64,000 nt of DNA from an uncultured Alphaproteobacteria bacterium (GCA_910585375.1 CAJUCZ010000005.1:11380-75379); one strand, 5' to 3'; shown: positions 8,365-46,681, counted from the stretch's first letter. The notes: generated by a model from the sequence alone, not told the origin. Made by a program: numbers and translations.

Positions 8365-11300
8365 TTAAAACAACTGCGGAACTCCGGCAGCGGGTTCAGT
8401 ATTGTCGTTCTTTTTAGCGCCGCTGTCCGTTTTTTGCGGCGTGGTTGCCGTTACAACTGCCGGACGGTTGGAAACCTGTGCTTTAGACATACCTGCGCCT
8501 GTTCCCGGCGGGGCAACAACCGGCGCACCACCCGGACGAACCGGAGGCTGATAGTATGCCGGCGGCTGGTAGGCCTCTTTCTTACGGCGGGCGCTTTCGC
8601 CACCGTCATCCATCAAAGGAACTTCTTCAACTTCGGCATTGTTCTGCGTATTTTTATATTGAACATTATTGGCAGACGGATAGTTGGCTTTGAAGCGTTC
8701 TTCGTTCGTGCTGTCTACCTGAAGCGGAATATCATCATCCAAACGGCGGGCGCTTTCGTCTTTAGCGCGTTCCTGTGTTCTCAGCCAGAGGTCAACCTGC
8801 GGATAAACAATGATTCTTGTACCTGCCGGAACATAAGTCATAGGCTGAATACTTGCCTTATCCGTCAGGATTTGGTTGAAAATACTGTCCATTGAGTTCA
8901 GGAAGTTCTGGCGCGCATCGTTAGCGGCTTCCTGTTTGGAGTTTTCTGTTTCTCCGTTATTCTTTTCATTTGTATTAATATAATAAGCCGCTGTTGAACT
9001 TAAGATTGTTGTCATCAAAGGCAAAGAATAGCGTTTGAACAGCTGCTGATCCAAATAGCCCAAAGCACCCCCGCGTCCCTGCGCGTCACCGGTCAGGCCG
9101 TTGAAGACAAAGATTGAGCCGTCGGGACGAATCAGGCGCCCCCAGCTGATTTGAATCTTGGCCGAGGTTGATGTTCTTTCGCCATTGGTACTGGTTACGC
9201 CGTCAATTGTGCCAATCAGCCTTGAACCGGCCGGAATCAGAATATTGCGGCCTTCCTCGGCATAGACGTTGCGCTCAACAATTGCCGTTACCGGCGTCGG
9301 GTTGCTGGAATCTATAGAGCGGGCGATAACGGCCGGAATCGGCTTATCAGCCAAAATCATTTCATCCATTTTAACACGCCAAGAAGAGATAACCTGTTCA
9401 ATGCCCTGTTCCGTCCAGTCTTTTTGCATGCCGTCAAAGTCTTCACGATTAAAACCGCTGGAGATTTTGCCGACTGAAATATTCTTCCGGCGTTCGTTCA
9501 TTGCAACACCCAAAGCATATTGGCGCTGAGGGTCATAACGTTCTCCGGGGCCAAAACCGCCGCCGGGGCCGAGGTTGGTTCCGGGACCGACACCAACGCC
9601 ATAAGCCGCACCGGGACCGAATTCTCCGGCAGGAACAAAGATTTCTCCGCCTTGCGGTTTTTTGATTTCTTCAATGCCGATCATCGTTCCGTTGTCATCA
9701 ATTACAATACCGTCAGGAAGTTTGCGCCCCAGAACATTGCCTTTTTTATCGACAACGCGGCCGTCTTCCAGAATATCTCCCAAATAATCACCGTCAGGCG
9801 TTAATGCAATATTAAAAGACTTGCGATATTCGCCGCCGTCAGCCGAACCGGGTATTTTTTCATCAATTGCACCGATTTTTATATCGCTTTTGCCGCCACT
9901 TTGTTTCGGACGAGTTCTCTCTTCCGGCGTTTTTTCATACCAGTTCACGCCGATACCGCCCAAAATATTACCGCTGGCATCCAATACCGTACCGTCTTTA
10001 TCCAATTTGCCGATGATTTTTCCGTCAATGTCTTCAACCGTACCGTCCGGATTGACATAGCCGACAAAGTTGCCGTTGGCGTCATAGGCTTTTTCTTTCT
10101 CAGGCACTTTGCCGATGACTTCATTGTTCAAGCCGATAATCTCGCCGTTTTTATTGCGGTGGCCGATAACATTGCCGTTCTCATCCACAAGTTCGCCGTT
10201 ATCATTTAAATAACCGATAACACGGCCGTCCTTGTCGACAACAATCTGATGGCTGCCGGGGCTGTAAAATTGCAGCGGATTGGCATAAGCCAAAACTTCT
10301 TTATTTTCGTCTTTCAGCTGTCCGAGCCGGTCTATTTTCCCTAAATCTTTATGATTCAGGTCATAAACCGTACCGTCCATGGCAAGTTCGCCGACAACGA
10401 TACGATCCTGATTGCGCAGCAGATAGCTGCGGTTGCCGCGGGCAATGACCTTATCATCGTTATCGACCAGAAAACCGCGGTTAATCCGTCCCAGCTTGCG
10501 GTTGGAAAAGTTCATAACCTCACCGCTGTTGCTGATATAACCGACAGCCTCAAAATTGGCATCATAAACATAAAAATCGTACAGCGCATAACCGGCTTTT
10601 TGCTCATTATGCCAAACATAGCCGTCGTGCGCGACCTGACCGACAACTTCGTTCCGGCCGTTTAACACTTCGCCTTTGGCATTGACCCGTCCGAGATACT
10701 GGTTGGCATTGTCAAAAGCAACCTGATAACGGAACAATTCGCCAATCGGATTGCCGGTTTTGGAATTTACGTTTTCATTGCCCTGAACATAGCCGATAAA
10801 CTGATTGTCTTCATCTGCCACACGGCCATCCAGAATCGAACGGCCGATGATTTTGTCATTAAAGCTCATTACCGGATAATACGGAATCAGGCGGCCGGCA
10901 ATTTCTCCGCCTTTTTTGACCAGACGCCCCTGCGCATTAACACAGCCGATGTTTTCATTATTATAATTTACCGCCGCACCGTTGACAGAGGTTACGCCGA
11001 TGACATTGCCGGTATTATCAACAATACCGTTCAGTTCGACCATATGACCGTTGATTTTGCCGTTTGAACCGACAATTTGTCCGTTGGCCAGAACACGGCC
11101 GATTTGAACGCCGCGGAAATTGCGAATTTCGGCAGCCGGCGTCAAAACGCCGAGGCTTGCGCATTTATCCGTAACGGCGCCGCCATAATTTATAATCCGG
11201 CCGGACAAAATATTCACGTTATCAATAACGCCGCCGTTCTCAACGACCCGGCCGACCGAAGAGCCGTCTTTATCCCTGACAACGCCGTCCAGACCGGCAT

Positions 11301-12993
11301 AGCCCATCAGCTCGCCGTCTACGGAAACAGCCGGAAGAAACGGATAGGCCGATCCCGTCTGCGGCATGAGTTCCGGAGAGTTGTCAGAATTTGTTTTGAC
11401 GGCAGACGTATCCGGCAGCAGCTTTGCAATAATATTGGCATTTTTATCCAATACAAAATTATCGGCGGTTAACAGGCCCAGACTTTCACCGTTTCCGTCC
11501 ACGGCAAAAGAAGCCGCAATATTTTTTCCGAGAATGCGGTTACGTTCATCCAAAACGATACCGGACTGGGTCATGCTGCCGAGGCGGGTGCCGCCGGCAT
11601 TGGTTACGTTACCGTTCAGACCCAGACGGGCGACAACGGCACCGTTAAAACTATATAAATTTTCCAGCGGGCAAGTCTGTCCGACGGCTGTTTCGGAATT
11701 ATCAAAAACATATCCGTAAGGAGAAACCACAATATCCCGTTCGCCGTTTTTTACGGACGACGCAATTGAAACCATGCCAAGGCTTTTGTTATCCGAACCG
11801 ATTATCAAAGCAGGTGACAACACGCCGCCGACAATTTTGCCGTCCGCATCGTATCCCTGCGTGCCTTTAACATAGCCGATACGGCTGCCGCTCAAATCTA
11901 TCAGCGAAGCATTGCTCAGTGCGATGCCCCGCAGGCTGCCGCGATAGTCAAACAGCGCACCCGGCGTCAGGATATTGCCGACAACACGCCCTTCGTTGTC
12001 CTGCACAATGCCGCGCGGACCGACACGACCGATAATTTCTTTGCCCGAAGCGATCAAACCCTCGGGCAGCAGGCGGCCGAGATATTGTCCTTTCAAATCA
12101 GACGCGGTGGCAGCAAAGTCAAGCATATAGCCGATAACAACATTTTTTTCATCGGCGATTGCGCCGTCGGCGCGCAGGCGGCCGACAACTTTTTCGCCAT
12201 TCACGACTTCTCCGTTATAAGACACAAAGCCCAGATATTTGCCGCGATTGTCAAAAGCATAACCGGTACGGACGATCCGGCCGATAATCTCGTTTTTATC
12301 ATTATACACAAAACCGCCGGCACGAATGCTGCCAATGATTTTGCCGTCAAAATCCGAAACTTCGCCGCCGGGAGCTACACTGCCGATAAAGGTCCCGTTC
12401 GGAGAAACAACCATTTTTGAAGAAATCAGGCGGCCGGCCAGAATATAATCACTGACCGCCTTACGGTAAGCATCGCCGGAAGGTGAAACAAAACCGACCT
12501 GCTGTCCGTCCAGCGTGGTAAAGCTGCCGTCCCCGGTAAAGCGTCCGATTGTCTTGCCGGTATCAGAATAAATCAGCCCCGGAAAAAGCACGGCGCCGAT
12601 AATGTTATAAGTATCGTCAATAACCAGACCGTTTGGCAGGGTTTTGCCGATAATTTTGCCGGAAGCAAGGCGGACAGAACCGTCATTACTGACTTTTCCG
12701 AGAAGTTTGGTATCATTTCCGACTGCAACGCCTTGCGGAACAACGCCGCCAATCAACTTGCCGTCAAAATTTACAATAAGGCTGTCGGCCGTCACGTTAC
12801 CAATCAGCTGATTATCCAAGCCGACTACACTGCCGTTCGGAATAACCTTACCTATAAGATCGCCGTTGAAATCTATTGCGCTGATTTCTTCCGCCGAGGC
12901 AGGCTGCAGCATGCAAAAAAACAGACCGGCGGCGAGAACCGCTTTCCGAATCTGACGGAAGAACCGCAAAATTATGTTTTCAAACGTCGTCAC
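8365..12993 (-). CDS. virB10: Giant VirB10/TrbI homolog (1542 aa)
   Basis: C-terminal 250 aa match the VirB10 core (VERNVYAEEGRNILIPAGSRLIGTI; IQISWGRLIRPDGSIFVFNGLTGD.QGRGGALGYLD; YVPAGTRIIVYPQVDLW). The N-terminal ~1100 aa are dozens of ~10/20-aa DG.V.D..G..IG repeats. GTG start at 12993 with a GGAGG site 8 nt upstream. Confidence 0.85.
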   Translation of the reverse strand: MTTFENIILRFFRQIRKAVLAAGLFFCMLQPASAEEISAIDFNGDLIGKVIPNGSVVGLDNQLIGNVTADSLIVNFDGKLIGGVVPQGVAVGNDTKLLGKVSNDGSVRLASGKIIGKTLPNGLVIDDTYNIIGAVLFPGLIYSDTGKTIGRFTGDGSFTTLDGQQVGFVSPSGDAYRKAVSDYILAGRLISSKMVVSPNGTFIGSVAPGGEVSDFDGKIIGSIRAGGFVYNDKNEIIGRIVRTGYAFDNRGKYLGFVSYNGEVVNGEKVVGRLRADGAIADEKNVVIGYMLDFAATASDLKGQYLGRLLPEGLIASGKEIIGRVGPRGIVQDNEGRVVGNILTPGALFDYRGSLRGIALSNASLIDLSGSRIGYVKGTQGYDADGKIVGGVLSPALIIGSDNKSLGMVSIASSVKNGERDIVVSPYGYVFDNSETAVGQTCPLENLYSFNGAVVARLGLNGNVTNAGGTRLGSMTQSGIVLDERNRILGKNIAASFAVDGNGESLGLLTADNFVLDKNANIIAKLLPDTSAVKTNSDNSPELMPQTGSAYPFLPAVSVDGELMGYAGLDGVVRDKDGSSVGRVVENGGVIDNVNILSGRIINYGGAVTDKCASLGVLTPAAEIRNFRGVQIGRVLANGQIVGSNGKINGHMVELNGIVDNTGNVIGVTSVNGAAVNYNNENIGCVNAQGRLVKKGGEIAGRLIPYYPVMSFNDKIIGRSILDGRVADEDNQFIGYVQGNENVNSKTGNPIGELFRYQVAFDNANQYLGRVNAKGEVLNGRNEVVGQVAHDGYVWHNEQKAGYALYDFYVYDANFEAVGYISNSGEVMNFSNRKLGRINRGFLVDNDDKVIARGNRSYLLRNQDRIVVGELAMDGTVYDLNHKDLGKIDRLGQLKDENKEVLAYANPLQFYSPGSHQIVVDKDGRVIGYLNDNGELVDENGNVIGHRNKNGEIIGLNNEVIGKVPEKEKAYDANGNFVGYVNPDGTVEDIDGKIIGKLDKDGTVLDASGNILGGIGVNWYEKTPEERTRPKQSGGKSDIKIGAIDEKIPGSADGGEYRKSFNIALTPDGDYLGDILEDGRVVDKKGNVLGRKLPDGIVIDDNGTMIGIEEIKKPQGGEIFVPAGEFGPGAAYGVGVGPGTNLGPGGGFGPGERYDPQRQYALGVAMNERRKNISVGKISSGFNREDFDGMQKDWTEQGIEQVISSWRVKMDEMILADKPIPAVIARSIDSSNPTPVTAIVERNVYAEEGRNILIPAGSRLIGTIDGVTSTNGERTSTSAKIQISWGRLIRPDGSIFVFNGLTGDAQGRGGALGYLDQQLFKRYSLPLMTTILSSTAAYYINTNEKNNGETENSKQEAANDARQNFLNSMDSIFNQILTDKASIQPMTYVPAGTRIIVYPQVDLWLRTQERAKDESARRLDDDIPLQVDSTNEERFKANYPSANNVQYKNTQNNAEVEEVPLMDDGGESARRKKEAYQPPAYYQPPVRPGGAPVVAPPGTGAGMSKAQVSNRPAVVTATTPQKTDSGAKKNDNTEPAAGVPQLF

Positions 12994-12995
12994 CT

Positions 12996-15900
12996 TTAAT
13001 TCCTCCGGTTTTTAGCGACTTCCGGCAAAGCATAGCCGGCAACCTTTTTATCCAAATCTATAAAGGAGCCGTTATTCTTCAAATAACCGATAACCTCCCC
13101 CTTGGCATCAACAACTTTGCCCTCGGGGTTCAATCTGCCTTTATATTTACCATCATTTCCTAATATTGTCGCCCCTATTTTGTAAATTTTACCAAGAATA
13201 TTATCTGCAGAATCGACTGCAAGACCGCCGGAAAGGCTTCGACCGGAAATCCGTCCGTCTTTGCCGCGGATGCGCCCGTCAAACTCTACAAAGCCGATAA
13301 CGTTATCGGTATTCCCGATGACAATATCGCCCTCAACGACTTCGCCAATCAGTTTTCCGGCCTGCGAGATGACATTGCCGTCAGAAAGCACACGTCCGAT
13401 AACAACATTATTGTTATCAATCACATTGCCGTTCGGCATGACCGCTCCCAAAAGCGCGCCGGAAAAATCAATAACCGCTCCGCGTTTAAGCAGGCTCAGG
13501 TTTTTATCCGTTGCTCCGCCGGGCAAAATGGCGGTCAAGGTATTGCTTTTAAGATCCAGCACATCGCCGACCGAAGTCATGCGGCCGCGATATCCGCCCC
13601 AGATATCAATCAAAATATTTTCAGGGACGACTTCGCCGATAACGGCGTTGCTTTTGTTCAGCACTTTGCCGTCGGAGCTGACACGACCGGTTTCTTTACC
13701 CTCCAAGCTGACAACCCGCCCGTCCGGCAGGACATACCCCAGATAGGCGCCGTCATAACCGATAGCCGCACCGCTGCGAATCACCGCTCCGAGATACTCG
13801 CCTTTGCTGCCGATAAAATTGCCTTTGGCATCAATATTGCCCAAAACATCGCCAAAGCGGTTCTGAACTCTGCCGTCATAATTGCTGCGGCCGATGACTT
13901 TGCCGTCAAACCCGACAATTTGTCCGATACGGACCGGCGTTCCCAAAATCTGATTATAAAAACTCAGTCCGTCGCCGTTAATTTTACCCAGAGATACGCC
14001 TTCGGTATTATAGACTTTTCCATCGGCAAAAATTGATCCCAGATAATCTCCCGATTTGTCGGAAAAAGAAGTCCTGACATCGGCGGCAATGCCGACAATT
14101 TCATTTTTATCATTCAGTACGAGGTTGTTGGCAGACAATTTCAACGGCTGCTGACCGCGCATGTTTACCTCAGCCTTTTGGTCAACAACGTTCATAAAAT
14201 TGCCGTTCAGGTCAAAGGCATACCGGCGGCCGAGAATCCGTCCGACATAACCACCGTCTTTATTAAAGATATCTCCATACATGCCGACACAACCGACCGG
14301 CAGGCCGGCATCATTTACAACCAGACCGTCAGCGCCGACACGCCCCAGATATTTGCCGTCATAATCGACAGCCGTACCTTGTTTCAGGACACCTCCGACA
14401 AGATTGCCTTTTTCATCAAGAACCGTGCCGTCCGGATTGACGCAGCCGACATACTGATTGTTAGAATCTTTAACAATACCGTCATTGCCGGCCTCGCCGA
14501 CCAGCATACAGGCGTTATCAAAAACCTTACCGGTCTTGGTTACTTCGCCGGCATAAGTTCCGTCTTTATTCAACACAATTCCGCTGGGCAGAACTTTTAA
14601 ATCCTGCTCCTCATTATTTTTTATGACTTTGCCGTCTTTATCCAAAAAGCCGAGCTGTTTGCAGCCAAATCCGATGACCAGTCCGCCACGCACCATTTCG
14701 GCTACGACTTCCGCTCCGGACATATCCCGAACCAGCAAATTGGCACCCACACGCCCGACCGGCTGGCGCGACTGGTTTTCAATCACGCCGGAATTTGTCA
14801 GGTTTCCGAGAATCCGCCCCTGCGGCGTTATCGGAATATAACCTTCAACCAGCAGGCGGCCGATAACTTTCCCGTCTTTAGTCATTATCACGCCGTTATT
14901 ATCCGTGCGGCCGATAACATTGCCGTCTTTATCAACAACCGTACCGTCCGGCATGACGACACCGATGGCATTGCCTTCATCATCCAGAGCAACCCGTCCC
15001 GGCCGTGTGATATAACCGATAATGCGGCCATTGCTGTCAACAACATCGCCGTAGCTGTTCAGGCGGCCGATAATCCGGCCTTCCATATCCTCAACCGTAC
15101 CGTCAGCCGTAACGCGCCCTATAACTTTACCGTCTTTATCATAAACAAAACCGTATTCGGCTTCCCGCCCGATAATGTTACCGCTTTCATCCAACACCGT
15201 GCCATCCGGCATGACTTTGCCAAGTACCTTGCCTTCCTTATCCACGACAGAGCCGTCATTATTGGCAAAACCTATGACATTGCCGTTTTCATCGACCACC
15301 AGCTTGCGGTTTTCAGCCACACCGATAATATTGCCGTTATTATCTACGACCATCCCCTGCGCATTGACGCGGCCGATAACATTACCATCCTTATCCCGCA
15401 CATAACCGTCTTCATCAATTGTTCCTATGACGTCGCCGTTCGGACCGATGGCATAACGGGTTACGACATCCGTTTTATTGATAACGGAATCCCTTCCGCC
15501 GGTACCGGAATCGCAAAAATTGCAGTCTTCCTTGCGGATAGCACTGCCGGTCACAGGAACTTTTGCGGCTTTAGCGTTTTCATCACCCAATCCGACTTCA
15601 ACCCAGGTAATGATAAAATTGTTTTGGACATTTCCGGTAACAACCGGAACCCAACTGATTTGGATATGGCAGGTTTCATCACCTTTAAGAATTGTTCCGC
15701 CGCAGCCGTTGGCGAAAGAAAAGCCATCGGCCGGCGGATCGGCCAAGTTAACAGATATAATCTTGACGGACGCATGGCCATTTGTACCCAAGGTCAAAAC
15801 ATTTCGGGCATTGCTGCCAATAATTACCTGACCAAGCGGTACAGGATCCGGCGTCATGGTCAGAGGCACTTCGCCTTCAATAATCCCTCCGATTTCTATA

Positions 15901-16109
15901 TTTGTAGACAGGCCGTTTTTACGGTCAATATTAATCCCGTCATCCGTGTTTTCAAAGTTCATTGAGGTTTCTTCAACCTCTCCGCCGCTCAGCAGCAGGA
16001 GTGAAATTCCGAACAAAAAGATTAAAAGGGAAGTAACACCGACAATCAAAATGATGCGGTTGGTCTTTTTGACATATACTTCCGAATTTGTTAACTGTTC
16101 GTCGCTCAT
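12996..16109 (-). CDS. Membrane-anchored repeat protein paralogous to the VirB10 N-terminal extension (about 1037 aa from Met 16109; the ORF extends to 16160)
   Basis: N-terminal TM helix (IILIVGVTSLLIFLFGISLLLLS) followed by the same DG.V.D..G..IG repeat array as VirB10, with no VirB10 core. TAA stop at 12996-12998 lies 2 nt before the VirB10 GTG. Confidence 0.7.
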   Translation of the reverse strand: MSDEQLTNSEVYVKKTNRIILIVGVTSLLIFLFGISLLLLSGGEVEETSMNFENTDDGINIDRKNGLSTNIEIGGIIEGEVPLTMTPDPVPLGQVIIGSNARNVLTLGTNGHASVKIISVNLADPPADGFSFANGCGGTILKGDETCHIQISWVPVVTGNVQNNFIITWVEVGLGDENAKAAKVPVTGSAIRKEDCNFCDSGTGGRDSVINKTDVVTRYAIGPNGDVIGTIDEDGYVRDKDGNVIGRVNAQGMVVDNNGNIIGVAENRKLVVDENGNVIGFANNDGSVVDKEGKVLGKVMPDGTVLDESGNIIGREAEYGFVYDKDGKVIGRVTADGTVEDMEGRIIGRLNSYGDVVDSNGRIIGYITRPGRVALDDEGNAIGVVMPDGTVVDKDGNVIGRTDNNGVIMTKDGKVIGRLLVEGYIPITPQGRILGNLTNSGVIENQSRQPVGRVGANLLVRDMSGAEVVAEMVRGGLVIGFGCKQLGFLDKDGKVIKNNEEQDLKVLPSGIVLNKDGTYAGEVTKTGKVFDNACMLVGEAGNDGIVKDSNNQYVGCVNPDGTVLDEKGNLVGGVLKQGTAVDYDGKYLGRVGADGLVVNDAGLPVGCVGMYGDIFNKDGGYVGRILGRRYAFDLNGNFMNVVDQKAEVNMRGQQPLKLSANNLVLNDKNEIVGIAADVRTSFSDKSGDYLGSIFADGKVYNTEGVSLGKINGDGLSFYNQILGTPVRIGQIVGFDGKVIGRSNYDGRVQNRFGDVLGNIDAKGNFIGSKGEYLGAVIRSGAAIGYDGAYLGYVLPDGRVVSLEGKETGRVSSDGKVLNKSNAVIGEVVPENILIDIWGGYRGRMTSVGDVLDLKSNTLTAILPGGATDKNLSLLKRGAVIDFSGALLGAVMPNGNVIDNNNVVIGRVLSDGNVISQAGKLIGEVVEGDIVIGNTDNVIGFVEFDGRIRGKDGRISGRSLSGGLAVDSADNILGKIYKIGATILGNDGKYKGRLNPEGKVVDAKGEVIGYLKNNGSFIDLDKKVAGYALPEVAKNRRN

Positions 16110-17806
16110 TGGGTCCTGACTACACTGCAAAATACACCGCTGCGTCCGAGTTTTCCGCAAACAGCATCACCCTCTTCCAGCGAATTAACCGGCCCGACAC
16201 GCAGGTGGAAAAGCTCTTTGCCTTGTCCGTCCGCCGGTGCGTCAACAGAGAAGAACGGATCATAAATGCTCAGGCTGTCTGCGTATTTTTTGGAAAGATT
16301 GTTCCATAAAACCTCCAATTTTGAAACATCGGAATCTGTACCGAGTTCAATGGAAATGTTGTTGGAGCCATCGGCCAAGGTATCTCCGTAGGCAAATTTA
16401 TCAAGATACTTATATCCTTTGCCGTAACGGTTATTATTTGTAATCCGCTGCATTTTGGAATAATCAACGTTTTCCATGCCTTTGGGCATTTTGCCTGCGG
16501 TTTCATAGCCAATTCCGATGTTGCCGCCTGCATTGTTTTTATATTGAGGTTCAATAATCTCGCTGTTGCCGACCTGAATGTCATATTGTGCCGGAGTACC
16601 ATTTTTTGCATCTTCCAGACTTATGCCGCCGGAAGAATCGGATGCTCCGCTTCCGCCAACCCGAACAGAAGCGTTCGGTATGGCGTAAGGGTTGTTAGTT
16701 CCCGGAGCCTGACTCTGCGGCATTCCGGAACCTGGAAGCGGCGCGGGTACATCCCATTGCGGCGGCAAACCTTCTCCGCCCGGCGCATTTTCCAATCCGA
16801 CATCATCGCCGCGACGCAGCTTCAGGCAGATAATCCTTTTACCGTTACGCAACACAATATCACCAATACCTTCAACTATAATCAACCGGTTATCCGGTCC
16901 GGCCGCCCTAAAACCGACGGGAACTTCCATGCGTTCGACAATCAGGGTGGCAATCGGCCGCTGGTTCATATTCAGCGCCCGTTTGCCAAAGTCTATATAA
17001 GTAAAGATATCGTCACGCCAAACGCGTTCCGGCGCAATCACGACGTCATCAGGATTAGGAACATAAACTTCAACGTCAAACTTGAATTTGGACGGATCTA
17101 CCGGAATTTCCCGCAGCCAGTTATCATCCTGGAAGCGGCGGAGCTGCGTTGCATCTGCTGATTTTGCTCCGGATGACAAACCGGCGCTTCCTCCGTTAAA
17201 ATTTCGGCCGTATCCTCCAGACATACCGCCCAGCCCTGTTTTTTTGCCATTTGCCCCGCGGCCGGCAATAACCTCAATATCAATAATGGAATTAGTCAAC
17301 CGTTCAGTATTAACCGCTTCGCTTTTAACATAAAAGACATAACGGTTTCCGGACCGCCCAAAGATAATCACGTTGGTATCAACACCGACATTTGCGCCCT
17401 GCCGGGGATATAAAAGGACGGTATTGGGACCGGAGATTTGTCCGTCAAATGTGGCATTATCCCCGATAAAGACATCTTCAACCATTTCCCACTCAGGAAA
17501 ATTGAGCAAAGTCATCATGCCTTCGCGCAAGCGGACCGGCAAAACCAAATCCGGCGTCCAATAGTATTTGGAATAAGCGGGACGCGACTGCCCCTCACCA
17601 AGGTTTTGCATCGGATCCAGCCAGGCACTTTGTGTCATACCCAAAGAATTGAAGCCGGCATAGCCGAGGTTCATGGGCTGATAGTTGCCGTTGACTTCAT
17701 CTGCACTGTTATTAACCTGATCTACAGTCTGAGCCATAAGGAACGGAGCCCCGGCAACAAAAACCAGCAGGGCCGTGAGGCTGAATTTTACGACTTTGCG
17801 AAACAT
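16106..17806 (-). CDS. virB9: VirB9/TrbG-like protein with a ~230-aa C-terminal extension (566 aa)
   Basis: Signal peptide. VirB9-like N-domain (LVLPVRLREGMMTLLNFPEWEMVEDVFIGD..., TNVIIFGRSGNRYVFYVKS) and C-domain (RPIATLIVERMEVPVGF...IIVEGIGDIVLRNGKRIICLKLRRG), then a G/S/N-rich extension. Confidence 0.65.
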   Translation of the reverse strand: MFRKVVKFSLTALLVFVAGAPFLMAQTVDQVNNSADEVNGNYQPMNLGYAGFNSLGMTQSAWLDPMQNLGEGQSRPAYSKYYWTPDLVLPVRLREGMMTLLNFPEWEMVEDVFIGDNATFDGQISGPNTVLLYPRQGANVGVDTNVIIFGRSGNRYVFYVKSEAVNTERLTNSIIDIEVIAGRGANGKKTGLGGMSGGYGRNFNGGSAGLSSGAKSADATQLRRFQDDNWLREIPVDPSKFKFDVEVYVPNPDDVVIAPERVWRDDIFTYIDFGKRALNMNQRPIATLIVERMEVPVGFRAAGPDNRLIIVEGIGDIVLRNGKRIICLKLRRGDDVGLENAPGGEGLPPQWDVPAPLPGSGMPQSQAPGTNNPYAIPNASVRVGGSGASDSSGGISLEDAKNGTPAQYDIQVGNSEIIEPQYKNNAGGNIGIGYETAGKMPKGMENVDYSKMQRITNNNRYGKGYKYLDKFAYGDTLADGSNNISIELGTDSDVSKLEVLWNNLSKKYADSLSIYDPFFSVDAPADGQGKELFHLRVGPVNSLEEGDAVCGKLGRSGVFCSVVRTQ

Positions 17807-17820
17807 TATAGACTGAACTC

Positions 17821-18564
17821 CTAATCCTTATTTACTTTATTATGGGTCAAAGCATAGCGGTCAACCGTAAAGCCGACCGGATTGTTTAATCTTTCTGAAT
17901 ATTTTACCGTTTTCTGGCGATAAAGCACGCGAAGCGTGGCTGTCCAGTAATTGACGGTCGGGCTTTTTGAATCCGGAAACATATCGCGGGTTTCATACTC
18001 GACCTGCCACAAACCTCGGCCGATTTCATTGACAGACAAGATACGGACTTCCCGCGCAAGGGCTTTGGTTCTGATGATTTCAAGCGCCCGTTTGGCCGTC
18101 CGCTGAATAAACTCTTCATAAACCGGAACGGAAGACATTTCCTGAATTGGCCCGTTCGGCATCCAGCGCGCTTCCATCTCCTGAATATCACGGGTAAAGG
18201 AACTGCGCATCAGAATATACTGGCGGACAAAGACCTCCGTTACCGTTTTATGGTCTTCCATATTGCCGCGAATGCGCTTGATATTATAAACCTGTTCCTG
18301 TTTGTTTTGAAAAGTCAGCAAAAACGGCTCAACGCGGAACAACGGGATAACCTGCATAATGGCAATAATCAGCACAATATTGCAACAAATGCTGACGGCT
18401 GTGATAATGGCAAAAGCACGCGCAGTCCACAGGTATTTTTTTTCGTTACTGTTGCCGATGAACAATTCGGAATCGGCTGATGAGGAATAGTAATCATTGC
18501 GACGAGCGCCCTGATTCCCAATCAGCTTGGTTTCAGAATTGCCAGACCCCAGAATACGCGCCAT
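17821..18564 (-). CDS. virB8: VirB8 paralog 2 (247 aa)
   Basis: Bitopic topology (cytoplasmic N-terminus, one TM helix, periplasmic domain) and C-terminal NPVGFTVDRY (the VirB8 NPxG motif); paralogous to 18958-19719. Confidence 0.7.
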   Translation of the reverse strand: MARILGSGNSETKLIGNQGARRNDYYSSSADSELFIGNSNEKKYLWTARAFAIITAVSICCNIVLIIAIMQVIPLFRVEPFLLTFQNKQEQVYNIKRIRGNMEDHKTVTEVFVRQYILMRSSFTRDIQEMEARWMPNGPIQEMSSVPVYEEFIQRTAKRALEIIRTKALAREVRILSVNEIGRGLWQVEYETRDMFPDSKSPTVNYWTATLRVLYRQKTVKYSERLNNPVGFTVDRYALTHNKVNKD

Positions 18565-37359: not shown

Positions 37360-38634
37360 GTGTTAGAAGACGCAAACCTGACAGAAGAAGATGTAGAAAA
37401 AGGCAATGAACGGACATGGAGCTCATCCATGACCGTTGCCGGCACGGAATATGCGACGAGCCTCTTCTGGCAGCCGCTGCAAAACCGCGATGATCCGTAT
37501 CAGGAAGTTGAAGAAGCTTCTTCCGGAATTATGGAAGGCGCAGACTTGTTCTGTATCAAGCCAGGTAAAGCACCGCAGTTTGGTATTTGCGTATCGGAAG
37601 AAGGTTTTCGCAAAGGAATGGATGTTGCCGTTGTTGCTTTGGCAACGGCTTTGTCCGACAGGTCTTCTCTGGTTGCAGTTTTTAAGGTAGAAAACGGCTG
37701 GTGGTATGTTTGTATCAGAAACGATATTATTCTTTCTGACGGTGACATGCTGTTCCTTAATGAGGAAGATGCCAAAAGCCAGTTTGAATCGATGATGGCA
37801 GTTCCCGACTGGAGACGCAGGATCGCACCGCCGGAATGGGGATACGAAGACACAGAATATCCTGACCTTGAAAAGATTTTGGCCCGCGGCGGAAAAGCCA
37901 AGCTGAAAAAAATCAAGGCTTTGCGCGGAACAAAACTGATTTTGGTCATTGTTGTTTCGGTATCTGTCGGCTTTTACCTGCTTTCCAATATTTTATCCGA
38001 AATCTTTTTTGCGCCGCCCAAACGCCCTCCGGTCACGGTACCGATTGTACCTAAGGCCGCACCGGTACAGAAACTGCCGGAAATCAAACCTTGGGAAAAA
38101 GTAAAAGATCCGTTTCAGGTTATGACCGGTTGCCAAAATGCCGTGGTTAAGTTGTTGACGATTGTAACGCCGGGATGGGAAATCGGCCAGATAAAATGTT
38201 CGGACAGCAATGCCCAGACCGCATGGAGCAGAAAAGTCGGCCGCGTATCTTGGATAAAAAAAGCCTTGGAAGATTCCGGCGTTAAGTTCAGCGGTGTTTT
38301 ATATTCCGAAACAGGAGATCAGGCAACCGTATCGTTACAATTCGGACCGGTAGCGCAGAAAAAATCTCCCCCTGCTTATGCAACACAGCAGTTGAAACTG
38401 ATTTTAAATGACTTTTTTCAGGGAATCGGCCAAAAAATATCAATGACCAACTCGTCTTTTACTTCTCCTGAGCATAACGTTTACCGTTCGGTTGTTTTTA
38501 AGTTTTCATCGAAGTATAAACCGGTGGTCTGGCGGGATTTGTTAATGAAATTTTCAGGACTTGAGATTAAAAGTATAACTTATACACCATCGACAAAACA
38601 ATGGGATTATGAAGGAGCAATCTATGTGTTATAG
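37360..38634 (+). CDS. Bitopic inner-membrane protein (424 aa), PilO-like by position
   Basis: Cytoplasmic N-domain, one TM helix (LILVIVVSVSVGFYLLSNIL) and a periplasmic C-domain; matches the R64 pilO slot. Confidence 0.4.
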   Translation: MLEDANLTEEDVEKGNERTWSSSMTVAGTEYATSLFWQPLQNRDDPYQEVEEASSGIMEGADLFCIKPGKAPQFGICVSEEGFRKGMDVAVVALATALSDRSSLVAVFKVENGWWYVCIRNDIILSDGDMLFLNEEDAKSQFESMMAVPDWRRRIAPPEWGYEDTEYPDLEKILARGGKAKLKKIKALRGTKLILVIVVSVSVGFYLLSNILSEIFFAPPKRPPVTVPIVPKAAPVQKLPEIKPWEKVKDPFQVMTGCQNAVVKLLTIVTPGWEIGQIKCSDSNAQTAWSRKVGRVSWIKKALEDSGVKFSGVLYSETGDQATVSLQFGPVAQKKSPPAYATQQLKLILNDFFQGIGQKISMTNSSFTSPEHNVYRSVVFKFSSKYKPVVWRDLLMKFSGLEIKSITYTPSTKQWDYEGAIYVL

Positions 38635-40267
38635 TAAGAAAGATTTTAGCCGGAGGGCTTTGGCGGCGCTCATTTTGGGAATGATGTTTTCCGGAAATGC
38701 GATGGCAGCCGATAAAGACTCAGCCATAGATTTGGGATTTGACGACGAATTCGGCATATCTGCCGATGAGCTCGGCGGCTCTGCTGCTCCCAAACCCCAG
38801 CTCAGCATAGACAAAGACGGCAACAAAGGCGGGTTGTTGGCTCCGGCACACGGAATTGTCCCGAAGACGGGCGCTGCGCCGATTGTGCCGAAAACAGGTA
38901 TTGTTCCCAAGACCGGCGAAGCTCCCATTGTCCCTAAAACAGGTGCTTTGCCTAATGGCATCGTTCCCAAGACGGGTGCCGCGCCGATTGTGCCGAAAAC
39001 AGGCATTGTTCCCAAGACCGGCGAAGCTCCCATTGTCCCTAAAACAGGTGCTTTGCCTAATGGTATCGTTCCAAAGACGGGTGCCGCACCGGTTGTACCG
39101 AAAACAGGTATTGTTCCCAAGACCGGCGAAGCCCCCATTGTCCCTAAAACAGGTGCTTTGCCGAGCGGTGTTGTCCCGAAGACGGGTGCCGCACCGGGGG
39201 GTATTGTTCCCAAAACCGGAGGACTTTTGCCTCCGGAACAAGATGTCGCTCCCAGTCTGCCGCAGACAACCGCCGCAATGAACGTTTTGGATGAACTTGA
39301 TGATGAAGTTTTCTCCCAAATGACAGACATTGAAAAACAGACGGCAATTTTGTCATTGGAATTGCGCAGAGAAAAACTCAGAAATGAAATTGAAGCAATC
39401 AAGGCTCAGCGGCTGAAAGCTCAAAACGAAGTTTTTGAAAAAGAAGAAGCAGAAAAGCTTAAAAGACTGGAATGGGAAAAAGAGCAGGAACGCAAAATTA
39501 TTGAAGAGCAAGTCAAATTGCGCAAAGTTGAAATTGCTTATGAAAAAATGCGTCAGGAAGGCCTGTTGAATGCTTATAAAGAGCAGATGCTGAAAGAACA
39601 GCAGCGTTGGATTGAAAACAATGCCGGCATTTATGAGCGAATTGCCCATGAGAAAAAAGACCGTGAGGAATTTACCCAAAATGTTAAAGAAAGGCTGAGC
39701 CGACTGATGGATGCGTTGAATAAAGCCAATCAGATTGCAGAAACAGCCGTGGAAAACCACAAAAAAGAGGTTTCGGAACTGCAGACCCAGATTTCTATTT
39801 TGAAAGCCCGTCTGGAAGCCGAAAAGAAGACTAATCCGTTTGCTGACGGACAGGTTCCGGCCAATGCAGCAGCTGCAGAACAGGAAGAAGAAGACGAAGA
39901 GTTTAGAGTCAGCGACCTTTATGTGGTTATGGAAATTACCGGTCAGGGCGATGAACTGGTTGCCAAACTGATGAACCGCGATGGACAGACATTTTTGGCG
40001 AGAACAGGTACGATGTTGCAAACGGGCCAAAAAGTTGACCAGATTGCCACGACACACGTCCGTGTTGACAGAGGCGGCATTAAAGATTATCTATACTTCT
40101 CTGCCGGCGGCGTGATTGACAAAGAACCATTGAACGGTGCGGCAAAAGCTATTGAAAAAGAGGCCGAGGAAAAGAATAAAGAAAAAACGGCAACGGAAAA
40201 ACCCAAAAAATCGGTTGTTTCCAGCCGCGGGATTCCCGGCGTCAGCAAAGACATGATATTGAGGTAA
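38609..40267 (+). CDS. Secreted PKTG-repeat / coiled-coil protein (552 aa), PilP-like by position
   Basis: Signal peptide (NAMAADKD), about 12 xxVPKTG repeats, a long coiled coil and a C-terminal globular domain. Confidence 0.45.
   Translation: MKEQSMCYSKKDFSRRALAALILGMMFSGNAMAADKDSAIDLGFDDEFGISADELGGSAAPKPQLSIDKDGNKGGLLAPAHGIVPKTGAAPIVPKTGIVPKTGEAPIVPKTGALPNGIVPKTGAAPIVPKTGIVPKTGEAPIVPKTGALPNGIVPKTGAAPVVPKTGIVPKTGEAPIVPKTGALPSGVVPKTGAAPGGIVPKTGGLLPPEQDVAPSLPQTTAAMNVLDELDDEVFSQMTDIEKQTAILSLELRREKLRNEIEAIKAQRLKAQNEVFEKEEAEKLKRLEWEKEQERKIIEEQVKLRKVEIAYEKMRQEGLLNAYKEQMLKEQQRWIENNAGIYERIAHEKKDREEFTQNVKERLSRLMDALNKANQIAETAVENHKKEVSELQTQISILKARLEAEKKTNPFADGQVPANAAAAEQEEEDEEFRVSDLYVVMEITGQGDELVAKLMNRDGQTFLARTGTMLQTGQKVDQIATTHVRVDRGGIKDYLYFSAGGVIDKEPLNGAAKAIEKEAEEKNKEKTATEKPKKSVVSSRGIPGVSKDMILR
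38851..39240 (+). repeat. Three tandem ~129-bp in-frame DNA repeats encoding G(I/V)VPKTGAAPIVPKTGIVPKTGEAPIVPKTGALPN
   Basis: Near-identical 129-bp units are visible directly in the nucleotide sequence. Confidence 0.7.
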
Positions 40268-40276
40268 CCTGAAAAA

Positions 40277-41950
40277 ATGGCAGAAGAGGATGAAGGTTTA
40301 AGCTCCCAAACTCCCGAGAAAGTAGTCTCCAGCGGCGGCGTTATCGAAGAAGAAACTGGCAGAAGAACCGGAAAACGGGTTGAAGACTATTTTCCTCAGG
40401 GCGTTACTCTTCTGACACTTCCGAACAGCGAAGACTTTATCATTAACGATGACACACGCCGCTTGCTGGCTTTGTTCTCAAACGGGCTGTTTCTTGTGTC
40501 GGAAACACATAAGTTTGACGGACGCGTTCTAAGCTTTGAGGTCTTGGCCCGCAAGAAAAAAGTTGTTATCAACAAACCGACATATGTTTCCCAAAACGAG
40601 TTGAACGCCATTTATACTTATGGCGAGCGTGCCGCCAATGTGGCAGCGGAAGAGGCCGATACGGTCGATTTGACCGCCGACCAGATGCAAATGCAAAAAG
40701 ACTTTGTGCAGGTGGTTGAACGCGCCGCACTCTTAAAGGTGTCGGATATTCATATTGTGGTGGCGGACAGTACGCAGATTTTGTTCCGTATCAACGGTAT
40801 GATGCAGACAATGATGGAATATAACAAAGACTGGGGCGAGGCTTTTGTGCGGGCAGCGTTTGCGTCTTCAGACATTTCCGATGCAAACTATACGCAAAAT
40901 GAATTTCAGGCAGCACAAAAACTTGGTTCGACACCGTTGCGCGGTTCTAAGGGCAAACTGATGTTGCCGCACAATGTGTTGGCTATCCGTTTGCAATTTA
41001 ACCCGATTGCTTTCGGATCGCAATATCTGGTTATGCGTTTGTTGTATGCCGATGACAATCCTGACGGTTCCGGCGACTTGCAGGCTTTGGGTTTTGGAGA
41101 ATATGAAGAAAACCTGTTTTACCGGCTGCGCGCCGTGCCGGTAGGCATTTCCATTATTGCGGGTCCGACAGGTTCCGGAAAATCGACCACACTGCAAAGA
41201 AACATGATTAAGCTTTTGCAGGAAAAAAATTATGAAATTAACCTCCTGACCGTGGAAGACCCGCCAGAATACCCCATTCCGGGGGCGCGTCAGATGCCGG
41301 TAACCAACGCCAACACTGAAGAAGAAAAAGACGAACAGTTCAACAAAGCGCTTGCCGCCGCTCTGCGTTCCGACCCTGACGTTATTATGGTGGGCGAGGT
41401 GCGAACATTGGCTGCGGCACAACTGGCTTTTAAAGGCGCATTGTCCGGACACGGAATGTGGACGACCCTGCACGCCAACTCGGCGCCGGCGATTATCACG
41501 CGTCTGATGGATATGGGCGTAGAACCGTTTAAGCTGACCGATCCTGAAATTATGAAGGGACTGATTTCGCAACGTTTGTTTCGCAAACTTTGTCCGCACT
41601 GCCGTGTTTCTGTAAAAGAAAAGCTTGACCAACCTTCGGTAAAGCGGTTAAAAACCGCTTTGGGCGATTTCGGAATTGAAAATACATACATTCGAGGGCC
41701 GGGTTGCAAATATTGCGGCAATCAAGGGGTTAAAGGCCGGATGAGCGTGCCGGAGATTATTCTGCCGGACGCGACTTTTCTGGAGCTGATGACAACCGGC
41801 GAAACCAGAAAGGCCATTGACTACTGGACAGGAGATTTAGGCGGCAGAACACTGCGTGACGCCGCGATTGAGCGTATGCTCAAAGGATATTTGGATTTGG
41901 AAGAAATCGAGCGTTGGTGCGGTTTGCTTGACCAACGTCCGTCATATTAA
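40277..41950 (+). CDS. GspE/PilB-family assembly ATPase (PilQ-like, 557 aa)
   Basis: Walker A (IIAGPTGSGKSTTL), Asp box and Walker B (DPDVIMVGEVR), His box (GHGMWTTLHANSA) and a tetracysteine CPHC...CKYC zinc motif. Confidence 0.85.
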   Translation: MAEEDEGLSSQTPEKVVSSGGVIEEETGRRTGKRVEDYFPQGVTLLTLPNSEDFIINDDTRRLLALFSNGLFLVSETHKFDGRVLSFEVLARKKKVVINKPTYVSQNELNAIYTYGERAANVAAEEADTVDLTADQMQMQKDFVQVVERAALLKVSDIHIVVADSTQILFRINGMMQTMMEYNKDWGEAFVRAAFASSDISDANYTQNEFQAAQKLGSTPLRGSKGKLMLPHNVLAIRLQFNPIAFGSQYLVMRLLYADDNPDGSGDLQALGFGEYEENLFYRLRAVPVGISIIAGPTGSGKSTTLQRNMIKLLQEKNYEINLLTVEDPPEYPIPGARQMPVTNANTEEEKDEQFNKALAAALRSDPDVIMVGEVRTLAAAQLAFKGALSGHGMWTTLHANSAPAIITRLMDMGVEPFKLTDPEIMKGLISQRLFRKLCPHCRVSVKEKLDQPSVKRLKTALGDFGIENTYIRGPGCKYCGNQGVKGRMSVPEIILPDATFLELMTTGETRKAIDYWTGDLGGRTLRDAAIERMLKGYLDLEEIERWCGLLDQRPSY

Positions 41951-41968
41951 AAAACGGAGTTTGAAATT

Positions 41969-43093
41969 ATGGCAAGAGATGACAGAAGATCTGCTTCATT
42001 ACAAAAGGCGATGAAGCGCCTGAATGCCGTTGAGGTGCAATATGCCAGGCTGGTCGTTAACATGTCCAACAACGCACGGCTGAAACTTTATCGCAAAATC
42101 GCCTCGCTGATGCGCAACCGCTTTTCTCTGATGGATGCGCTTGACCGTTTGCATGACGGCATTTCCAATGGCGGAAAAAACGCCGGTGAGCCTTTTGCCA
42201 TTGCCATTGTCGAATGGTCAAAAAAGCTGCAAAACGGTATTCCGTTTTCCGATGCGCTGAAAGGCTGGGCGCCCGACCGCGAAAGGCTGATGCTTTCGGT
42301 CGGTGACGTTTCTGACTTGGAAATGGCGTTATTAAACCTTATCCGCGTGACTGAAGGGTCTGCAAAGATGGTGCGTCCGATTATCGGCGCGGTTACTTAT
42401 CCGAGCTTTTTGTTTATGATGGCGGTTCTGATTATCTATGCCATCGGCGCCTATATGGTGCCGCCGATGATTGACGCCGCGCCGGACGTGGTCTGGACAG
42501 GTTTGGCCAGGGATTTGGTTGACGTTTCATATTGGATTAAAGACTACTGGATTGTCGCGTTTTCGGCGCTGCCGATTATTATGATTGTGATTTACGGAAC
42601 CATCGGAATTTGGACCGGTCCGATACGGGCGATTTTTGACAAATTGCCGCCGTGGTCCCTGTATAAAGTTTTTACCGGCATCAGCTGGCTTTTGGCGCTT
42701 TCAGCTCTGGTAAAAGGCGGAACGCCGGTTTCTAATGCCCTCAGGGCTTTGCGAAGGGATTCCAGCCGTTATCTGAAAGAACGCATTGACAAGACGCTGG
42801 TTTACATTAACGCCGGTGAAAACCTCGGACAAGCTTTGGCCAAAACAAATCTGGACTTTCCGGATGTTGAGATTATCGGCGACCTCAAGATTTATTCCGA
42901 GTTGGACAACTTTGAAGAGGCTTTGGAAAAACTGGCTAACGACTGGCTGGATGAAAGTGTGTACTTGATTGAACAAAAAGCCTCAATCTTAAACATGGTG
43001 GCGCTGTTGTCTATCGGCGGCGTTATCGCCTGGGCAGTTATGGGTACCTTTGAAATGCAAGACCAGATTACCAGCAACATGGGTCGCGGCTAA
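41969..43093 (+). CDS. GspF/PilC-family platform protein (PilR-like, 374 aa)
   Basis: Three hydrophobic helices alternating with two cytoplasmic T2SSF-like domains; follows the ATPase. Confidence 0.75.
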   Translation: MARDDRRSASLQKAMKRLNAVEVQYARLVVNMSNNARLKLYRKIASLMRNRFSLMDALDRLHDGISNGGKNAGEPFAIAIVEWSKKLQNGIPFSDALKGWAPDRERLMLSVGDVSDLEMALLNLIRVTEGSAKMVRPIIGAVTYPSFLFMMAVLIIYAIGAYMVPPMIDAAPDVVWTGLARDLVDVSYWIKDYWIVAFSALPIIMIVIYGTIGIWTGPIRAIFDKLPPWSLYKVFTGISWLLALSALVKGGTPVSNALRALRRDSSRYLKERIDKTLVYINAGENLGQALAKTNLDFPDVEIIGDLKIYSELDNFEEALEKLANDWLDESVYLIEQKASILNMVALLSIGGVIAWAVMGTFEMQDQITSNMGRG

Positions 43094-45718: not shown

Positions 45719-46681
45719 TTAATATTCCTGAAACAGGCTCATGCCGCGGGCAAGGCGGGTCATTTGGGTTTCAATTGACGTACCAAGGTTTAACTTGCCG
45801 CTTTTGATAATGCCGCGCACCTGATCGCCGTGGGAAGAGTTCGGGTTGGCAAAGAGGTAGGTCGCTACCGGTTTTTTTACGCTCGTGCCCATTAATCCCT
45901 GATGCAATACGCCGATAATACCACGGGAGAACAAGTCATAGGCCAACTCTTCGCTCATTGACGTAGAGGCGGCGTATTTAACAACAGAATAAATCGCATC
46001 GGTAATGTTATTGGCGTGAATGGTCGAAAGCACCAAGTGGCCGGAAGTGGCAGCGCGCAAGACCTCGCTGGCGGTATCGGGTGTTCTGATCTCTCCTACC
46101 AGAATATAGTTTGGTTTTGAGCGCAATGCCGATTTTAACGAAGCCCCCCAGTCATCATTCTGAGGCTGCGTCTGTTTGCACAAGCCCAAGCCGCCTTTGG
46201 TGGATTTGTAAATCCCGTCCAGAGGCATTTCGGTCGGGTCTTCAATGGTATAAGCAAAGCCGCCTTCAATTGCCAAAAACTCTTTCAACAGCGAAGAAAT
46301 GGCCGTGGTTTTGCCGGCGCCGGTCGGACCTGACCACAGAATAAGACCGGAAGCGTTTGACAATGACAGCAGGAACTTGGTTAATTCATGCGGAAAACCC
46401 AGACTGCCGAAAGGCGGGACTTTCTCCGGCATTTTACGGGCACAATATTGTGTACCGTACAGGCTTTCGGTTCGCTCAACACGGTAAAAAATGTTTTCAT
46501 AAAGCAAGGAATAAGACGGGTTATGGCCGTCCCATTTTTCTTCCAGCCGTTTATAAAAAATGTCAAAATCTTCGGCATCCAAAATTGTCAGGCCGTTTTT
46601 GGTCTGTCCGTCCGGAATGAACGCAATCCGATCCGGCGTGATGTAAATGTCCGAAAATTTGACGTCATTGATTTTTACCAT
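45719..46681 (-). CDS. pilT: PilT/PilU-family hexameric ATPase (320 aa)
   Basis: Walker A (WSGPTGAGKTTAI), YTIEDPTE, Walker B and Asp box (ILVGEIRTPDT), His box (GHLVLSTIHANN); the length is typical of PilT. DotB-like is an alternative. Confidence 0.75.
   Translation of the reverse strand: MVKINDVKFSDIYITPDRIAFIPDGQTKNGLTILDAEDFDIFYKRLEEKWDGHNPSYSLLYENIFYRVERTESLYGTQYCARKMPEKVPPFGSLGFPHELTKFLLSLSNASGLILWSGPTGAGKTTAISSLLKEFLAIEGGFAYTIEDPTEMPLDGIYKSTKGGLGLCKQTQPQNDDWGASLKSALRSKPNYILVGEIRTPDTASEVLRAATSGHLVLSTIHANNITDAIYSVVKYAASTSMSEELAYDLFSRGIIGVLHQGLMGTSVKKPVATYLFANPNSSHGDQVRGIIKSGKLNLGTSIETQMTRLARGMSLFQEY

Follow-up and report, generated by a model that had tools for sequence, protein, structure and literature searches.

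This report concerns a 64,000-nt stretch of DNA from an uncultured Alphaproteobacteria bacterium (GCA_910585375.1, CAJUCZ010000005.1:11380-75379), hereafter the window, whose minus strand carries a VirB-type type IV secretion system (T4SS) operon. Between the homologues of virB9 and virB11 in this operon lie two genes, one that we call X (or VirB10-N) and one that we call VirB10-C, which bears a TrbI domain. All coordinates are those of the window, and the features of the operon are on the minus strand throughout. The VirB9 homologue (16106-17806, 566 aa) was recognized by its Pfam CagX domain and the VirB11 homologue (7385-8353) by family profile matches. X (12996-16109) was defined by its open reading frame (ORF) and translation and encodes a protein of 1037 aa with the N-terminal sequence MSDEQLTNSEVYVKKTN, while VirB10-C (8365-12993) encodes 1542 aa. 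The ORF of X extends from 12996 to 16160, but orthologue alignment sets the start at the ATG at 16109 rather than at an upstream TTG at 16160, so that from the range of 1037-1054 aa given in the initial annotation only the lower figure is kept.

The genes around X are closely packed. The stop codon of virB9 (TGA) and the start codon of X (ATG) overlap as ATGA at 16106-16109. At the other end the X stop codon (TAA, 12998-12996) precedes the GTG start of virB10-C at 12993, which lies 2 nt past the stop and in another frame; its GGAGG Shine-Dalgarno sequence (13002-13006) falls within the 3' end of X, and the sequence agrees here with what had been described at first reading. X is, as read from these junctions, translationally coupled to both virB9 and virB10-C.

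The domain structure of X was examined with Pfam and with an AlphaFold2 model built from a 31-sequence alignment (mean predicted local distance difference test score (pLDDT) 82, predicted template modeling score (pTM) 0.72), and every part that the initial annotation had ascribed to the protein was found: an N-terminal transmembrane (TM) helix, an Ig-like domain and a repeat array, with no VirB10 core. Residues 1-40 (15990-16109) form a conserved cytoplasmic tail and a single TM helix (residues 8-40 in the model), predicted to be oriented N-in. The tail carries the motif L-T-x-S-[ED]-x-Y-V-K-K-T-N-R, common to the single-gene giant VirB10s described below. Over 62 species the hydrophobic stretch has a median length of 21 aa, with basic residues and the conserved S-[ED]-x-Y-V-[KR]-K-T-N-R before it; the N-in orientation follows from the positive-inside rule. 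By prediction, therefore, X has the bitopic feature of the VirB10 family, an N-terminal tail followed by a single TM helix. Next come an acidic, poorly conserved linker with pLDDT <50 (residues 41-80, 15870-15989) and an ASH/PapD-like Ig domain (residues 83-191, 15537-15863), a β-sandwich with conserved Cys136 and Cys147 whose fold matches solved ASH/MSP/PapD-like domains. A CxxC linker (residues 192-216, 15462-15536) with invariant Cys196 and Cys199 and pLDDT <50 for 197-216 leads into the repeats.

The remainder of X is almost wholly an array of ~47 β-hairpin repeats of 17 aa, of the β-flower type (residues 217-1027, 13029-15461). The unit is D-x-x-G-x-(V/I)-I-G-x-(V/I)-x-x-D-G-x-V-x, with a period of 17 aa or 51 nt. 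The array is uninterrupted in the model, with strands alternating between 5 and 3 residues; units are regular at 222-440 and then degenerate, with conserved Cys483, Cys534, Cys556 and Cys607. Pfam matched Bflower_2 at 2.2e-54 (7 stretches, 182.5 bits, cut-off 38) as well as DUF3659 and Bflower, but found no TrbI match. This repeat array is far beyond chance. Identity between the copies at DNA level is no more than 60-80%, and Tandem Repeats Finder reported nothing, so that the array is an old and diverged one. With a pTM of 0.72 across >1000 residues, the model speaks, as far as it goes, for a rigid continuous assembly; we found no clear 85-aa (five-hairpin) super-period of the kind expected from closed five-fold flowers. 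Among PDB structures only the ASH Ig domain found a fold match, and no solved structure resembled the array. We also considered that X might be an RHS/YD-repeat protein, since it has a weak YD_repeat_2x match without an individually significant stretch and precomputed RHS_repeat matches recorded as faint, but it has no Rhs core or toxin domain and this identity was rejected.

X ends in a segment of particular note for what follows. Residues 1018-1037 (12999-13058; ...VAGYALPEVAKNRRN), with a short helix at 1028-1036, are the best-conserved 20-aa window of the protein (score 0.90), and are not present in single-gene forms; in alignment, the terminal EVAKNRRN has no counterpart in the single-gene giants.

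VirB10-C consists of a signal peptide, ~60 hairpins, a Gly-rich linker, a TrbI domain and a Pro-rich tail. Residues 1-34 (12892-12993) are a predicted cleavable Sec-type signal peptide, identified by comparison across species, with the cut between ...QPASA and EEISAIDF. Across species this N-terminus shows a variable basic stretch, a short hydrophobic stretch (median run 12.5 aa) and then invariant (Q/E)EITAIDFNGDLIGKV; at the predicted cleavage site position -1 is Ala in 59 of 62 species and position -3 is A, V, T, S or L. Judged by these features, the start of VirB10-C is a standard cleavable Sec signal peptide that replaces the canonical cytoplasmic tail and TM helix. This loss of the TM anchor and gain of a predicted cleavable signal peptide goes beyond anything in the initial annotation. 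The array (residues 35-1015, 9949-12891) is of the same type as that of X (AlphaFold2 pLDDT 78.7, pTM 0.72; Bflower_2 2.2e-58). Both arrays open with a cap resembling A-I-(G/D)-x-(D/N)-G-x-(V/L)-I-G, and they align colinearly from their first residues. Conservation is 0.88 at residues 35-54 and 0.76-0.81 over the next 150 residues, against 0.4-0.6 in the rest of the array, so that the mature N-terminus (the first ~170 residues of the array) is the best-conserved part of the protein besides TrbI. The TrbI/VirB10 core domain itself occupies residues 1213-1404 (8782-9357; Pfam TrbI 1.3e-35), and the NCBIfam models ComB10 and VirB10 match under their cut-offs. TrbI is followed by a Pro/Ala-rich tail of low conservation (approximately residues 1405-1542, 8365-8781), which closes with a ...P-x-L-F conserved in split and unsplit forms alike (PQLF in the window, PELF in P0162, PRLF in P0188).

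Relatives of X occur in 170 GTDB species representatives, all of them metagenome-assembled genomes (MAGs) of uncultured Alphaproteobacteria from human, ruminant, chicken and other guts; the closest, at 97% identity, come from a water deer (L007) and a human (L010). A pair of repeat-rich genes inside a VirB operon had been called highly atypical. That holds against canonical T4SSs, but within this lineage, with its 170 species representatives, the arrangement is the rule. The comparison of orthologous loci proposed in the initial annotation was made: the X-type N-terminus and TrbI are in different ORFs, never fused, in 82 of the 82 loci having both ends, always in the order VirB9-X-VirB10-VirB11, and a single gene takes their place in ~100 sister clusters. 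The VirB10-C ORF is in relative frame 0, 1 and 2 to X in 21, 20 and 21 species, respectively, and the closest plausible start codon downstream is -1 to +6 nt away from the X stop in 60 of 62 species. Programmed read-through or frameshifting that would join X and VirB10-C was considered and is rejected because all three relative frames are equally frequent.

Both X and VirB10-C are under strong purifying selection, with stronger constraint on X. For X the ratio of nonsynonymous to synonymous substitution rates (dN/dS) is 0.035-0.069 in comparisons with relatives 87-97% identical to it, and each of the five close relatives likewise has exactly 1037 codons. Recombination-driven change of repeat length has been reported for cagY. 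A recombining array of that sort was considered for X as well, but is ruled out by the blank Tandem Repeats Finder result, the divergence of the copies and the fixed codon number in the five relatives; with neither near-identical DNA repeats nor length variation among close relatives, X gives no sign of such change. Among distant species of the split clade array length does differ widely, X ranging from 1037 to 1574 aa and VirB10-C from 1368 to 2290 aa. Strongly differing array lengths are found at L078 (12394-19392), L076 (12184-18504) and L074 (5751-10490), with VirB10-C of up to ~2330 aa and X of up to ~1580 aa.

A profile-free search with X residues 1-225 against 1.84 billion representatives gave two kinds of matches, unrelated ASH-domain proteins and proteins of 1930-2363 aa that match the whole N-terminus and also carry Bflower repeats and a C-terminal TrbI. 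The ASH-type Ig domain can reach 34 copies in giant proteins of unrelated architecture (P0121, 4358 aa), and because it recurs in unrelated proteins the N-terminal search is specific only when the tail and TM helix are included. We found ~100 clusters of these single-gene giants (1900-2600 aa), all from Alphaproteobacteria MAGs; as they come from NCBI, ENA, JGI and Logan assemblies, they are unlikely to be chimeric mis-assemblies. They are annotated just as hypothetical, DUF3659 or TrbI/VirB10 family. Their layout is a cytoplasmic tail, a TM helix, an ASH Ig domain, ~1600 aa of 17-aa β-hairpin repeats, a Gly-rich linker and a TrbI barrel. One of them, P0162 (2201 aa), begins MNEDLLSSSDKYLKKSNRTLLLVGIFAFLAFF... 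and ends in the same GERYDP-TrbI-...ELF module as the VirB10-C of the window.

The giants are encoded at the corresponding place in their operons. Their loci run VirB8, small lipoprotein, VirB8, VirB9, one gene of 2201 or 2213 codons, VirB11, so that the virB9-virB11 interval holds one gene in the giant loci versus two in the window and its relatives. With the window pair the giants (P0162, 2201 aa; P0325, 2213 aa) share the N-terminal motif, TM helix, ASH domain, repeat type, Gly-rich linker, TrbI, ...LF end and synteny; they differ in being one polypeptide, lacking the X tail EVAKNRRN and having no internal signal peptide. Over its full length X can be aligned with residues 1-1056 of P0162 (30% identity, E 2.6e-117), and VirB10-C residues 34-1407 align with P0162 residues 619-2064. 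Of the hidden Markov models (HMMs) built on 130-aa blocks, those covering X residues 1-520 had a unique placement, at residues 1-460 of the sister giants, and those covering VirB10-C residues 815-1200 mapped to residues 1356-1831.

A neighbor-joining (NJ) tree was computed from the TrbI domain with four canonical plasmid VirB10s as outgroups (119 sequences left after thinning, 218 columns); in it the split forms are one clade within the single-gene forms, with the P0162 group as sister (50/50 bootstraps). The four canonical plasmid VirB10s, used as controls too, are single chains with an N-terminal TM helix. Because canonical VirB10s have this form and the split clade is nested among single-gene forms, the single-gene state appears ancestral and the split the result of one fission. 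X has no TrbI and by that domain test would not be placed in the VirB10/TrbI family, but it belongs there by descent and by its position between virB9 and virB11; on these alignments X descends from the front part of a VirB10. The initial annotation had left a choice between an independent repeat-only paralog or subunit and the fission of an even longer ancestral virB10. The giants with the same N-terminus and synteny, and the nesting of the split clade among them, bear out the latter; the former is not the best description of X, which is better seen as the N-terminal half of VirB10 itself.

How two halves might do the work of one protein can be outlined as follows. The cytoplasmic end of canonical VirB10 contacts the inner-membrane ATPase complex. 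X would be anchored in the inner membrane, its N-terminus facing the cytoplasm, while VirB10-C would be exported by Sec and have its signal peptide cleaved, and its TrbI domain would join VirB9 and VirB7 in the outer-membrane core; prediction and comparison both suggest this bitopic X and this exported, processed VirB10-C with an intact TrbI core. The two rigid β-hairpin arrays could then associate non-covalently in the periplasm, with the new ends, that is the C-terminus of X and the N-terminus of VirB10-C, as the likely contact. Such reassociation would rebuild the envelope-spanning VirB10 strut, with a bulky periplasmic collar like the repeat regions of CagY and DotG. We infer that the halves reassociate in the periplasm, keeping the VirB10 link from inner to outer membrane, because the genes are invariably adjacent and tightly coupled, because the new ends are the best-conserved non-core segments and because the X tail is absent from single-gene forms. 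If DotG and CagY are a guide, a large collar or cage in the periplasm is probably what the arrays form. Canonical T4SS cores contain ~14 copies of VirB10, and each VirB10 pair would add ~1900 residues of array per copy. Why the split became fixed is a matter for speculation; two pieces of 1000-1500 aa may be easier to export by Sec, or separate chains may free the stoichiometry.

Our preferred reading is thus that a giant VirB10 was divided once, by gene fission in the ancestor of these gut and rumen Alphaproteobacteria, X being its N-terminal half, and that the halves reassociate in the periplasm; we put its probability at roughly 0.72. Several observations weigh against it. The outgroups that root the tree are distant (25-35% identity) and the tree is NJ only. 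X and mature VirB10-C together have a median of 2618 aa versus 2230 aa for the single-gene form, ~390 aa longer, and the alignments of the two on P0162 overlap by ~440 aa, so a partial duplication may have accompanied the split. Breakpoint mapping on the giants with end-specific HMMs and the 130-aa block HMMs did not locate the breakpoint: the outer blocks alone map uniquely, because the middle repeat blocks match promiscuously. The conservation of the new ends could reflect capping of the arrays for folding rather than an interface. No length compensation between X and VirB10-C was found across species (Spearman -0.03), which gives no support for a fixed total span. Finally, all the data are MAG sequences and predictions.

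A possible objection on origin is that the whole giant virB10 was duplicated in tandem and then reciprocally truncated, with the upstream copy losing TrbI and the downstream copy losing the tail, TM helix and Ig domain, which would give the same end state. The excess length of the pair and the overlap on P0162 speak for this, as do the similar caps with which the two arrays begin and their colinear alignment from the first residues. But slippage of repeats and later gains of units give the same numbers, and since array length varies widely within the split clade, later expansion explains the extra length equally well. The middle blocks are uninformative on the question, and no intermediate with two full copies was seen among the 82 loci or the ~100 single-gene clusters. 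We consider duplication unlikely, and continue to favor a single fission.

A second objection accepts the split and concerns function. The halves may no longer cooperate; X would then be an autonomous inner-membrane-anchored periplasmic scaffold or spacer, similar to DotF, and VirB10-C would work without an inner-membrane link, covalent or not. A precedent is DotF, a bitopic inner-membrane partner with a gene of its own beside dotG, which encodes a VirB10 homologue (bioRxiv 10.1101/2023.03.22.533729). In Legionella, core complexes are able to form even when the VirB10 homologue is missing (PMC9371333). The uncompensated lengths of the halves also fit this picture. For X itself, neither Pfam/NCBIfam scans nor PDB fold matches gave any similarity to DotF/IcmG, and the likeness is topological only, consisting of a bitopic protein with its gene beside a VirB10 homologue. 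Against an autonomous X stand the constant adjacency and tight coupling of the two genes (82 of 82 loci) and the conservation of the two new termini, which is the highest outside the core; X, besides, not only is under more constraint than VirB10-C but has kept the ancestral VirB10 cytoplasmic tail. An autonomous X therefore seems to us as improbable as the duplication, and we retain reassociated halves as the better account.

It is far less probable still that X evolved independently as an accessory subunit that merely shares its repeat type with VirB10. X does lack TrbI, and β-flower and ASH domains occur in many unrelated proteins; however, its tail, TM helix, Ig domain and CxxC linker find their match in true VirB10s that occupy the same place in the operon, and the downstream VirB10 lacks exactly the parts that X carries. 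The 2-nt spacing in the window might suggest a sequencing or assembly error in what is really one gene, a worry raised in the initial annotation, or a decaying pseudogene with X as a remnant, but the separate ORFs at all 82 loci from independent projects and hosts, the evenly mixed frames, the Shine-Dalgarno sequence and signal peptide that VirB10-C has of its own, and the low dN/dS and invariant length of X exclude assembly error, recoding and pseudogene decay, making the chance of this negligible.

Taken a step further, the fission would leave this lineage, which counts at least 170 species-level genomes, with a two-polypeptide VirB10, comprising an inner-membrane "sensor/anchor" and a Sec-exported "outer-membrane channel" that are rejoined non-covalently via giant β-flower arrays; we give this fuller scheme about an even chance. 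In the prevailing model VirB10 relays an inner-membrane ATP signal to the outer-membrane channel, and Cascales and Christie are said to have found in 2004 that in A. tumefaciens this protein is a sensor of ATP use at the inner membrane. If the scheme is true, the coupling of ATPase to outer-membrane gate that is credited to VirB10 needs no continuous chain, and the β-flower fold gains its first functional context, as the stuff from which a periplasmic collar is built. VirB10 counts as the sole T4SS subunit to span both membranes (PMC9371333); a conserved natural split opens its need for covalent continuity to direct testing, and points to where an engineered division of VirB10 might be tolerated. 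A literature search across 8 million full texts returned no account of a split VirB10 or of β-flower repeats as part of a T4SS, and no paper describing giant VirB10s, single-gene ones included, in these bacteria. Giant β-hairpin VirB10s (2-2.6 kaa) are the norm in widespread uncultured gut Alphaproteobacteria of humans and animals, and X-type genes, now listed as DUF3659 domain-containing or hypothetical, are better read as the N-terminal halves of VirB10. The natural split of an envelope-spanning subunit should concern T4SS specialists; for structural bioinformaticians, an orphan fold, the β-flower, is tied to a defined machine.

The comparison with known systems places X and VirB10-C together at the position that canonical VirB10/TrbI proteins (A. 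tumefaciens VirB10, pKM101 TraF, R388 TrwE) occupy between virB9 and virB11, and jointly they reproduce the canonical order of cytoplasmic tail, TM helix, periplasmic region and TrbI barrel. The canonical proteins are single chains of 400-530 aa, whereas the window has ~2550 aa in two genes, of which ~1900 aa are β-hairpin repeats, plus the Ig domain; and the TrbI half in the window has a signal peptide where canonical VirB10 has a TM anchor. H. pylori CagY and Legionella DotG/IcmE resemble the window in having a large repeat region between the TM helix and the TrbI core, and the repeat-rich middle regions of DotG and CagY have been proposed to form a periplasmic collar (bioRxiv 10.1101/2023.03.22.533729; PMC9371333). 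Their repeats are unrelated to those of the window, however (DotG units are of 10 aa, those of the window are 17-aa β-hairpins), and CagY and DotG are single chains. The Rickettsiales rvh-type T4SS is, like that of the window, a chromosomal P-type system in which VirB8 is duplicated, a VirB7 and several VirB2-like genes are present and no relaxase is encoded nearby (components in PMC2653234), but RvhB10 is a single VirB10 of ordinary size with small insertions, and no split or β-flower array is described for it (PMC2653234).

With respect to the β-flower families (PF21784 and PF21785, clan CL0395), X scores far above the PF21785 gathering threshold and has the [DNEQ]xxG motif at the hairpin tip. 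The β-flowers in which this semi-conserved tip motif was described (Durairaj et al. 2023, PMC10584680) are small, shallow and closed 4-, 5- or 6-fold barrels of hairpin "petals", ~100 aa in size and of no known function; in contrast, X with ~47 consecutive hairpins and VirB10-C with ~60 are predicted to be long rigid arrays in a T4SS subunit. These arrays may be either a series of closed five-fold flowers or a continuous solenoid.

The rest of the operon lies upstream of X. The VirB9 homologue is long, its CagX match is weak (43 bits), and its C-terminus is weakly SPOR-like (E 0.006); a faint SPOR match is likewise recorded for the VirB9 orthologues of L003 and L004. Before it come a second virB8 (17821-18564), a gene for a 62-aa VirB7-like lipoprotein with lipobox LSGC (18579-18767), and the first virB8 (18958-19719). 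The order virB8, small lipoprotein, second virB8 is kept in all related loci examined, and a gene of 62-69 aa stands at the lipoprotein position in every related locus, split or unsplit; the lipoprotein is probably the VirB7 equivalent.

Four operon genes without family matches lie between VirB4 and VirB8. The one directly upstream of virB8 (19729-23976) encodes a protein of 1415 aa that has no Pfam/NCBIfam match and no long hydrophobic runs, and is thus not an obvious VirB6; it is conserved in split-type loci (1309-1417 aa), and the unsplit loci L087 and L088 are without a gene of similar size there. The other three (504, 241 and 381 aa; 23939-27319) are candidate VirB5/VirB6-type or lineage-specific subunits, and at least two of them have signal-peptide-like N-termini. 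Further upstream are VirB4 (27623-30154), VirB3 (30048-30350) and, between virB3 and the pilin genes, a 244-aa low-complexity protein without a family match (30488-31222), with internal repeats (...GWNEETSERNG..., ...APNVDxLNKDLQN...) and a Lys/Glu-rich center. Three tandem VirB2/TrbC-like pilin paralogues follow (223, 138 and 135 aa; 31416-32957), of which only the 223-aa one is significant in Pfam; this one has a Cys-rich extension at its C-terminus.

Elsewhere in the window, a 1146-aa ORF at 338-3778 on the plus strand has as its sole match a sub-threshold Ribonuc_2-5A (E 2.3e-4). Adjoining the T4SS is a type IVb-pilus-like cluster (35014-43093, plus strand), which encodes a TcpQ-domain protein, a secretin, a PilO (PAP_PilO), an unassigned 552-aa protein, a T2SSE ATPase and a T2SSF platform protein. 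The cluster possibly reaches 45719-46681 on the minus strand, where a second T2SSE-family ATPase is encoded.

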